Source of the DNA: Candidatus Buchananbacteria bacterium RIFCSPLOWO2_01_FULL_39_33 | GTDB taxonomy: Bacteria > Patescibacteriota > Patescibacteriia > 2-01-FULL-39-33 | Reading direction: 5' to 3' | NCBI GenBank assembly: GCA_001817505.1 | Contig: MHIM01000034.1 | Coordinates: 51,005 to 115,004 of the forward strand | Length of the DNA stretch: 64,000 bases | Part shown: positions 28,389 to 29,455 of the stretch, piece by piece | Layout of the letters: every line of letters begins with the position of its first letter | Position numbering within the stretch: the stretch's first letter is position 1 | Program-made: the position numbers and the translations under genes | Notes under the pieces: model-generated | Database searches by the model: none | What the model was told of the DNA's origin: nothing | The model's input: the letters and a program-made list of their open reading frames with translations, nothing else

Positions 28389-29000
28389 ATGGATAAGCCG
28401 GAACTGTTGATTATGAATGTCCTGCCAGCATTGGGTCAGCTTAACGCCATGTTAAAGAATATCATGGCACAAATGAGCACCGATGACCCGAACGAAGCTA
28501 TCAGGTGCATCAACGCTGGTGAGTGGGTTGTCAAGATGGCAAACCTGCTCAAAAGGGTCACGACCATGTCGGTCAGCGGCCCGAAGAAGTTCGTCGTCAG
28601 CGAGCATCTCAAGGAAGCCAATGTCGGCTGGATGGGCGATAACTTCAACCGGGTTTTCCTCAACTTCGTTGAAGAAAATGTGCCCGACGCCACGCTCGCG
28701 GTTTCGCGCCTTGAGAGGAATTCGCCGGACGCCTCCATCCTTACCGAGCTCGGCGACAAGGCCAAGACCAAGCTCGCCCACTTGTTCCAGCTTATGGAGA
28801 AGCAGAGTAAGGGTGAGGAAGGTGTGCTTCTTGTCAACGGCTATGCGAATATCGTGTATGTCGAAGACGATAACGGCACTGTCTGGGCCGTGGGCGCGTA
28901 CTGGAACCCCGACCACGGCTACTGGCTCGTGAGTGCCCTCTCGGTTGAGGTTCCGTATGTGTGGGACGCTGGCGACCAGGTCCTTTCTCGCGATTCTTGA
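28389..29000 (+). CDS. Hypothetical 203-aa protein carrying a C-terminal variable region, a putative DGR target. Paralog of 53970-54539.
   Basis: A shared central core (LLKRVTTMSVSG...VNGYANIVYV) with the paralog. The 3' 111 nt matches the template-like repeat at 29345-29455 with adenine-biased mismatches. Confidence 0.6.
   Translation: MDKPELLIMNVLPALGQLNAMLKNIMAQMSTDDPNEAIRCINAGEWVVKMANLLKRVTTMSVSGPKKFVVSEHLKEANVGWMGDNFNRVFLNFVEENVPDATLAVSRLERNSPDASILTELGDKAKTKLAHLFQLMEKQSKGEEGVLLVNGYANIVYVEDDNGTVWAVGAYWNPDHGYWLVSALSVEVPYVWDAGDQVLSRDS
28881..28991 (+). repeat. Variable repeat VR1 (111 bp) at the 3' end of the 28389 gene.
   Basis: Codon-wise alignment to 29345-29455 gives 17 mismatches, 14 of them at template A positions. 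Confidence 0.6.
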
Positions 29001-29344
29001 TTTTTTGTGATTATGTCCCTTGGGGACTAAATCACTGTGAATTTATGAATCTTAGGTCCTCTGAAACTTTGAAAGTGGATGAGGGCCTTTTTTGTTTGCC
29101 AAAAATATTGTAAAATGAAGTTAGGGACAGCTAGTGCGACGGTTACGGCTTTCGCGCAGCGCCTTGGAAATATATGTTAGAGAATTGCCACAGATATGCT
29201 TTTGGCAAGAGGTGATGTATATTTTTCAAAAAAAGAAAAGAATCGGTGCAACGTGTTGGCGGACTTTGAGGTCCCAAATAATATACAGCCCTAAAATCGC
29301 GAAAGCTTTAAAGGGCAGTGGTAGAGATGGCATATTGCACATAA

Positions 29345-29455
29345 GTCTGGGCCATGAACGCGAACTGGAACTCCGACAATGGCTGCTGGAACGTGAATGC
29401 CAACTCGGTTGAGGTTCCGAATGAGTGGAACGCTGGCAACCAGGTCCTTTCTCGC
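29345..29455 (+). repeat. Template-repeat-like sequence (TR, 111 bp) of a diversity-generating retroelement. It is rich in AAC/AAT codons and non-coding. Homology to the target genes is confined to the VR extent.
   Basis: Reads aac gcg aac tgg aac tcc gac aat ggc tgc tgg aac gtg aat gcc aac ... The flanks share no homology with the target genes. A hairpin TTCCGC-TTTTTTG-GCGGAA lies downstream. Confidence 0.6.

Follow-up and report, generated by a model that had tools for sequence, protein, structure and literature searches.

The window, by which we mean the whole 64-kb stretch of DNA that was analysed, contains a chromosomal diversity-generating retroelement (DGR) of the Patescibacteria (CPR) clade in Candidatus Buchananbacteria from the Rifle aquifer. 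The system is a known one, and the locus represents a decayed copy of it. It retains a template repeat (TR) and two target genes with variable regions (VRs), and next to the TR lie the 3' ends of an avd gene and a reverse transcriptase (RT) gene, the remainder of which was removed by an internal deletion. We consider it probable that the locus is a recently inactivated relic that still sits in place, with its enzymes deleted and its VRs frozen.

A template repeat and two variable regions

The TR is a 112-nt stretch rich in AAC and AAT codons (29344-29455, plus strand). It aligns without gaps over these 112 nt to two VRs on the same strand: VR1 (28880-28991), which lies at the 3' end of target gene 1 (28389-29000, plus strand, 203 aa), and VR2 (54419-54530), which lies in target gene 2 (53970-54539, plus strand, 189 aa), a paralog that is 53% identical to target 1. 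VR2 is the older and more drifted of the two. VR1 starts 464 nt before the TR, and in both target ORFs the VR consists of the last 112 nt ahead of a terminal Asp-Ser-stop. The preliminary description of this DNA had reported a gapless repeat of 111 bp, which our alignments confirm and extend by one base at the 5' end. The TR and VR1 differ at 18 of the 112 positions, comprising 15 of 26 template adenines and 3 of 86 other positions (Fisher p 2.9e-9). The TR and VR2 differ at 30, comprising 20 of 26 template adenines and 10 of 86 other positions (Fisher p 5.4e-10), and 8 of those 10 non-adenine differences fall at third codon positions. Mismatches are enriched 25- to 38-fold at template adenines. 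Over the shorter 111-nt repeat we reproduced the counts given earlier, both for VR1 (17 mismatches, at 14/25 adenines and 3/86 other positions) and for VR2 (30 mismatches, 20 at adenines and 10 elsewhere). Homology between the TR and the VRs ends at either border of the repeat and is confined to the 112 nt, as had also been claimed. The 3' block CCAGGTCCTTTCTCGC is plausible as a putative IMH, and because it is identical in the TR and VR1, no difference between IMH and IMH* is readable from it. Six contigs, each the product of an independent assembly and drawn from different samples and sources, agree in every nucleotide from 28880 to 29700, which indicates that the arrangement is no assembly artefact. 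The same two target proteins are also present in two other NCBI bins and in many metagenome assemblies.

The target family had been described as unrecognised. This holds insofar as a Pfam search with the target protein returned no match, but the family, for which a C-type-lectin-like fold is predicted, proved to be the regular target of a Patescibacteria DGR clade. We detected 46 homologs, all of about 200 aa, and every named one is from Patescibacteria. Their C-terminal consensus, WAVxAxWxSxxxxWxVxAxSVExPxxWxAGxQVLSRDS, is variable exactly at the sites of the AAC/AAT codons of the TR. Furthermore, in almost every canonical cassette considered below, the ORF upstream of the TR is matched by a profile of the family, which indicates that this family is the usual target of the clade. 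Structure prediction for the 203-aa protein, which had been suggested as a check, yielded an N-terminal helical part followed by a C-type-lectin-like domain. The targets are, on this prediction, small proteins with a C-type-lectin-like fold, and each VR would occupy the C-terminus of a target protein with a ligand-binding (C-type-lectin or Ig-like) fold, as expected for a DGR. DGR variable proteins of solved structure (TvpA, 2y3c; formylglycine-generating-enzyme type C-type-lectin fold) are among the closest known systems. Two further ORFs were evaluated and rejected as parts of the system. A 189-aa ORF (52148-52717), considered as a third paralog, encodes an unrelated methyltransferase-like protein, and a 296-aa ORF after VR2, considered as a cryptic RT or conserved partner, neither matched Pfam nor resembled the gene that follows a remote target of the same family in locus L013.

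Stumps of avd and RT in a Patescibacteria cassette

Using a TR-specific pattern (three TGGAAC blocks), we scanned one-genome-per-species contigs, a set to which this assembly does not belong, and obtained 40 stretches, 36 of them from Patescibacteria or similar bins. The TR of the window has the same three blocks as these 36 TRs, and it is 84-95% alike to the TRs of two related loci, L061 and L062. Searches with tblastn placed avd and/or RT directly after the TR in about 34 of the 36 loci, and the others end with the stretch. The layout common to these ~34 loci is a target with its VR, about 460 nt, the TR, a hairpin, avd on the minus strand and RT on the plus strand. The locus of target homolog P0036 (L019) is a complete cassette of this kind, with a TR 376 nt beyond the target VR, the hairpin, a 112-aa bAvd (PF22296) encoded on the opposite strand and a 317-aa RVT_1 gene. 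In >30 related loci this arrangement is found with bAvd and RVT_1 intact. VR-TR spacing in canonical cassettes is 359-489 nt, which accommodates the 464 nt of the window, and the window also shares with them the hairpin after the TR and flanking sequence. Close relatives of the target family thus reside in complete cassettes with the same TR sequence, spacing and hairpin, which supports the earlier reading of the repeats as a DGR. A profile search indicates that the RT clade is very large (>8000 clusters), and from its taxonomy we infer that it corresponds to DGR clade 2 of Roux et al. (2021; PMC8144416), which is restricted to Patescibacteria. The CPR DGRs of Paul et al. (2017) are referred to here as they are cited in PMC8144416. 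In the literature we found no report that ties Buchananbacteria to a described DGR.

The preliminary description had stated that no RT or Avd gene lies next to the TR. This is correct for genes, but remnants of both adjoin the TR. The avd remnant (29458-29544, minus strand) comprises the last 28 codons and the stop (IRIIGKMLGGWKKGIIAKTSAKKAEERK, then stop). Using an Avd profile built from 35 cassette Avd proteins, hmmsearch matched IRIIGKMLGGWKKGIIAKTSA to profile positions 94-114 of 115 (E 1.4e-7 to 2.4e-7), and eight Avd queries matched the same place by tblastn. The frame runs from 29544 to 29458 and ends at the normal avd stop, within the hairpin region. The RT remnant (29539-29607, plus strand) comprises the last 23 codons and the stop (SYLGLLKHGNSYKIKNRILKWY, then stop), and 6 of 12 clade RTs match it by tblastn at 52-72% identity. 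The match, SYLGLLKHGNSYKIK at 29539-29583, corresponds to RT profile positions 297-316, and its frame ends at 29607. The two 3' stumps, which lie in the order and orientation expected from the clade cassettes, abut at a deletion junction at about 29536-29545, which indicates that one internal deletion in place took the enzyme module. This deletion removed avd codons 1 to ~93, a short divergent promoter/spacer region and RT codons 1 to ~296, for a size of roughly 1.2 kb as judged by the sizes in intact cassettes.

The 23-codon and 28-codon stumps are all that the locus holds of an RT gene and an avd gene, respectively. The 64-kb window contains no RT-type YxDD motif, and tblastn with clade RT and Avd queries returned nothing in it at E up to 10 other than the stumps. 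RVT_1 was absent among the precomputed Pfam calls for the genes of the window, for 10 kb upstream and for 6-10 kb downstream, and no other RT or Avd was found in about 84 kb of the contig (the window plus ~20 kb of flanks). An ORF with a PF05635 (23S_rRNA_IVP) match at 22543-22881 was considered as the missing Avd and rejected (BLASTP to clade Avd, E 1.4). Like Patescibacteria/CPR DGRs, the window has a TR/VR pair with adenine-specific mismatches and a small target, C-type-lectin-like by prediction, whose 3' end carries a VR. It also agrees with 30+ cassettes of the clade in gene order, spacing, TR sequence and hairpins, and its stumps are homologous to the Avd and RT of that clade. It differs in that avd and RT are deleted save for those 28 and 23 codons and in that diversification is not visible. 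The locus would be missed by RT-anchored surveys; the approach of PMC8144416 requires a VR next to an RT.

The template RNA gene and neighbouring hairpins

Between the terminator region of the target gene and the TR, ~215 nt are conserved across the clade and fold into three helices and two enclosed hairpins. In the window, this structured 5' domain of the template RNA, defined by covariation in a 29-locus alignment, spans 29134-29340 (plus strand). It consists of stem P1 (29134-29157), stem P2 (29178-29214) and a long-range helix P3, in which 29246-29257 pair with 29329-29340 and enclose hairpins P3a (29261-29274) and P3b (29288-29316), all on the plus strand. Compensatory changes are present in 37 of the 45 predicted pairs across the 29 loci. 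Observed pairing amounts to 94.8% of cells, compared with 72.8% in shuffled alignments (none of 500 shuffles attained 94.8%) and no more than 46% with slid partners. G-U pairs fix the strand of the domain as that of the TR. The window therefore shares the structured RNA that lies directly 5' of the TR in clade cassettes, and its copy has 43 of 45 pairs intact, as in intact cassettes. Upstream of this domain is a putative -10-like promoter element (TTGTAAAAT, 29108-29116, plus strand); TGnTAnAAT-like sequences align at the equivalent position in related loci, and a consensus scan made no call there.

Downstream, a hairpin with a T-run follows the TR (29469-29489, plus strand; -7.7 kcal/mol, z -5.6). 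It was called by a terminator scan and has an equivalent in every related locus, and it is likely the terminator of the template RNA. With the promoter-like element, the 5' domain, the TR and this terminator, the template RNA looks like a stand-alone gene of about 370 nt. A second terminator-like hairpin, with a 12-pair stem and a T-rich tail, follows the RT stump (29635-29662, plus strand) and may have been the terminator of the RT gene before the deletion. Beyond it, a GT4 glycosyltransferase gene begins at 29689; that a gene of this kind follows the TR had been noted.

Hairpins had been reported after the VRs as well as after the TR. Those after VR1 and the TR are indeed strong, whereas only an outer stem is left after VR2. 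The hairpin after VR1 (29007-29035, plus strand) is a candidate target-recognition hairpin with a DNA fold of -8.3 kcal/mol (z -5.7). Locus L061 has the same two-part stem after its VR, equally strong (z -5.7), with base changes that keep the pairing. In contrast, the hairpin after VR2 (54546-54574, plus strand; -3.5 kcal/mol, z -1.7) has decayed, keeping the outer stem GTGACT/AGTCAC and losing the inner one, and that of L062 is likewise decayed (z -0.5). The state of these hairpins follows the age order of the VRs, strong at VR1 and L061 and decayed at VR2 and L062.

We compared the 5' domain with known RNA families. Rfam RT-9 (RF03080) matches its first part at 23.6 bits, below the gathering score of 46.1 (E 0.13-0.29). 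The first hairpin of the domain (GUGCGACGGUUACGGCUUUCGCGC) matches that of RT-9, including the GGUUACGGCU core, and all 92 positions of the model are covered. However, the element in the window exceeds twice the length of RT-9 and includes a long-range helix that RT-9 lacks. Among the RNAs upstream of the TR in 37 canonical loci, no Rfam family reached its gathering score, and RT-9 did not recur among the matches when 12 of these 37 loci were searched less strictly (E up to 5). RT-9 is among the RT-associated motifs of Weinberg et al. (2017; PMC5737381), who proposed that such motifs serve DGRs and placed RT-10 in the spacer of the Bordetella phage BPP-1 DGR. The BPP-1 DGR (mtd, avd, TR, brt) is the experimental prototype, with a hairpin after its VR (Guo et al., 2011; PMC3240598), and its template RNA needs flanking RNA segments (bioRxiv 10.1101/2023.10.23.563531; PMC6182149). 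The window resembles BPP-1 in its adenine mutagenesis, in a target with a C-type-lectin fold (predicted for the window) and a C-terminal VR, and in the hairpin after the VR. It differs in its gene order (target, TR, avd on the opposite strand, RT) and in the location of its large structured RNA, which lies 5' of the TR and not in the 3' spacer as in BPP-1 (Rfam RT-10; PMC5737381). Furthermore, the host of the window is a cell and not a phage, and the enzymes are missing.

Timing of the loss and alternative readings

Differences between the TR and VR1 indicate that the TR has changed since VR1 was last rewritten. The window TR reads T at position 37 and G at position 42, where both the L061 TR and VR1 read C and A, which bears out the earlier suggestion that the TR had drifted. 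A G-to-A change at TR position 11 is possibly a further change specific to the window TR and missing from VR1, and VR1 has one change of its own, at position 29. Over 224 nt, post-homing drift thus amounts to about 3-4 substitutions, whereas divergence from L061 is about 16%, a contrast which suggests that the enzymes were lost comparatively recently. VR2, at positions 31, 79, 103 and 106, has the state of the L062 TR and not that of the local TR.

Related loci show other stages of decay. In L061, the closest locus, which shares 84% identity with the window across 1.25 kb, avd positions 87-114 are all that is left of the module, and the end of the RT is gone as well. L062, at 75% identity, still has avd from position 47 to 114 together with RT positions 257-316 that include an in-frame stop, and L071 has a complete avd and an RT that stops at profile position 251, so that its C-terminus is missing. 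The breakpoints differ, and the deletions in the window and in L061 are not derivable from one another, which suggests either independent events or independent enlargements of an older lesion. The L061 VR carries the TR changes specific to L061 (positions 52 and 67) with zero non-adenine mismatches. The L062 VR carries many L062-specific TR changes, and this pair now has 10 non-adenine mismatches; adenines at positions 33, 36, 47 and 81 of the L062 TR have later become G. The presence of lineage-specific TR changes in the VRs of L061 and L062 indicates that homing continued after these lineages split and stopped at different times.

We also looked for continuing diversification. Among the members of 90%-identity clusters (three for each target), there were no variants at template-adenine positions of VR1 or VR2. 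What few differences there are fall at a non-adenine base or outside the VR; one member has an R-to-C change near the end of VR2, which results from C-to-T at a non-adenine position. At consensus level, which leaves room for low-frequency variants among reads, the DNA of VR1 is identical in six assemblies and that of VR2 in eight, and no ongoing VR diversification was seen across cluster members and assemblies. A metagenome scan, using a pattern with N at the adenine positions on a collection that does not include Rifle samples, returned only one unrelated VR (L060).

The preliminary description had left open whether the system is served by an RT in trans or is a decaying orphan. Taken together, the stumps beside the TR, the drift of the TR and the invariant VRs favour decay. 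Some observations count against a relic. VR1 has 3 non-adenine mismatches to the TR, which is inside the range of 0-5 seen in cassettes with an intact RT (the pair in L036, whose RT is frameshifted, has 7), and the template RNA gene is fully intact in its pairs, promoter-like element and terminator. In addition, L061 lacks avd and RT yet retains a perfect non-adenine match between VR and TR, which fits either very recent loss or supply in trans. These observations bear on a reading in which the DGR is split and still active, such that an RT-Avd pair encoded at another DGR locus of the same genome uses the template RNA gene in trans and occasionally diversifies VR1 and perhaps VR2. The undamaged template RNA gene, which looks like a self-contained transcription unit, would suit this arrangement. 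In the target family, it is common for a target to lie remote from any TR or RT (L013, L015, L017), and among the matches listed some Patescibacteria contigs appear with two clade RTs (P0121/P0130, P0057/P0140, P0056/P0138). However, the changes at TR positions 37 and 42, and possibly 11, never reached VR1, which indicates that VR1 has not been rewritten since, and neither VR has a template-adenine variant in the assemblies and cluster members checked. Furthermore, no avd more than 71% identical to the local stump is present in a protein collection that includes three MAGs of the species, and the adenines that the L062 TR is losing are not copied as losses into its VR. We therefore regard supply in trans as unlikely, although it is the foremost of the alternatives.

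It is still less probable, to the point of being slight, that a different, intact TR elsewhere in the genome maintains VR1 and VR2 and that the local TR is a decaying duplicate. At the two positions of disagreement with the local TR, VR1 does match a TR like that of L061 (AAC..TAC), and VR2 shares four states with the L062 TR. Against this, the local TR lies at the canonical distance from VR1 with avd and RT stumps beside it, which identifies it as the TR of the original cassette; about 84 kb of contig contain no third TR-like copy, and the VRs are invariant. Finally, the reading that the 112-nt stretch is a pseudogene fragment of a target gene and that the paralogs diverged by ordinary substitution, which has only the absence of an RT gene in its favour, is refuted by the confinement of homology to the repeat, the adenine bias, the intact cassettes of the relatives and the avd and RT stumps.

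Under the favoured reading of an inactivated relic, the original cassette, as its relatives show, comprised a target with VR1, a stand-alone template RNA gene, an avd gene on the opposite strand and then the RT gene. By analogy with established DGRs, an RT-Avd complex would have copied the TR RNA into cDNA with misincorporation opposite adenines, and this cDNA would have replaced VR1 and, earlier, VR2 of the remote paralog. Such replacement would have diversified the ligand-binding face of small C-type-lectin-like proteins. The internal deletion of roughly 1.2 kb then removed most of avd and RT, leaving the 3' stumps. Since then the VRs would no longer be rewritten and would belong to ordinary genes under purifying selection, and the TR would slowly gain substitutions.

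As a relic, the locus clearly illustrates how a DGR dies in nature: a single deletion removes the divergent avd-RT pair, the template and targets remain, and the amount of drift between TR and VR dates the loss of the enzymes. DGR surveys anchored on the RT do not detect relics of this kind, which might be taken in error for systems served in trans. The other truncations of the avd-RT module, in L061, L062 and L071, suggest that diversification is commonly lost after a useful variant has become fixed. If supply in trans were true instead, TR and RT would be unlinked, the template RNA gene would have been kept because it is used in trans, and the loss of avd and RT in three related lineages with retention of the RNA gene would reflect a split arrangement and not decay. 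A by-product of the analysis may matter more than the relic itself, namely the strongly covarying RNA domain of ~200 nt that lies 5' of the TR in a very large clade. This domain, which falls below every Rfam threshold, points to an RNA architecture unlike that of the Bordetella phage prototype and provides a concrete RNA for reconstitution tests.

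Damage to the cassettes of related loci

Damage to the avd–reverse transcriptase (RT) cassette was found at several loci related to that of the window. At L061, the closest relative, avd is reduced to 28 codons (2189-2296) and nothing more of the two genes is left, and at L062 only avd 47-114 and RT 257-316 remain (2379-2732). The cassette of L071 is damaged in its RT, which lacks the last ~66 profile positions (4712-5449), and in L036 and L052 the RT of each damaged cassette is broken into several frames. Mismatches between the variable repeat (VR) and the template repeat (TR) at non-adenine template positions are numerous (7-10) in L036 and L062, number three in the window, and are absent from L061 and L052.

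Downstream of the L061 relic lies a gene (2620-2883) that resembles the 5' leader and start of the VR2 protein gene (window 53905-54060). Both proteins begin MKYGNVTLG..., and their genes have in common the 5' leader CAACTCACGGGCAGTGA.AAATCCATGAGCTA.TAGCTCAA.GGAG, although the L061 protein departs from the VR2 protein past ~30 residues. These two genes may have a common N-terminal module and leader element. In one assembly the VR2 protein is represented by P0050, a 151-aa copy on a 12,687-bp contig. This copy breaks off precisely where the VR starts, at its first codon, probably because the 112-nt repeat broke the contig there.

Other genes in and beyond the window

An ORF of 112 aa that belongs to the 23S_rRNA_IVP family (PF05635) lies on the + strand at 22543-22881, alone amid glycosyltransferase genes and 6 kb upstream of VR1. 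We take this family to be a four-helix-bundle group that includes Avd; comparison of the ORF with the Avd of the clade revealed no similarity. Also noted in this small CPR genome were two iPGM-type phosphoglycerate mutase paralogs in tandem (17448-19004 and 19305-20897) and two MreB-like genes (26929-27936 and 37521-38558). Past the 3' end of the window, in the flanking contig stretch L068 (11361-16720), one assembly carries a gene for a tyrosine integrase and, after it, several unknown ORFs together with a Fic gene. Other assemblies differ here, and the stretch may be a small variable island.

Hairpins after the VRs and a structured RNA 5' of the TR

Hairpins follow the VRs in the window (29007-29035 and 54546-54574), in L061 (1742-1770) and in L062 (about 1900-1925). 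Their strength tracks the state of the VR, being strong at 0-3 non-adenine mismatches and decayed at 10. The ~105 nt 3' of the stop codons of both target paralogs (28992-29098 and 54531-54640) are homologous and comprise the hairpin, a terminator-like stem and a T-run, in contrast to the mere 53% identity between the two target proteins. At the VR1 locus, this homology ends exactly at the start of the putative template RNA gene.

Directly 5' of the TR, an alignment that included loci L019-L064 revealed a structured RNA domain of ~200 nt (window 29134-29340), which is kept across the Patescibacteria DGR clade and shows compensatory changes at 37 of its 45 pairs. The domain reached the gathering score of no Rfam family, and its sole Rfam match, RT-9, was sub-threshold. 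Taken together, the RNA domain, a -10-like element and the terminator hairpin after the TR suggest a stand-alone template RNA gene.
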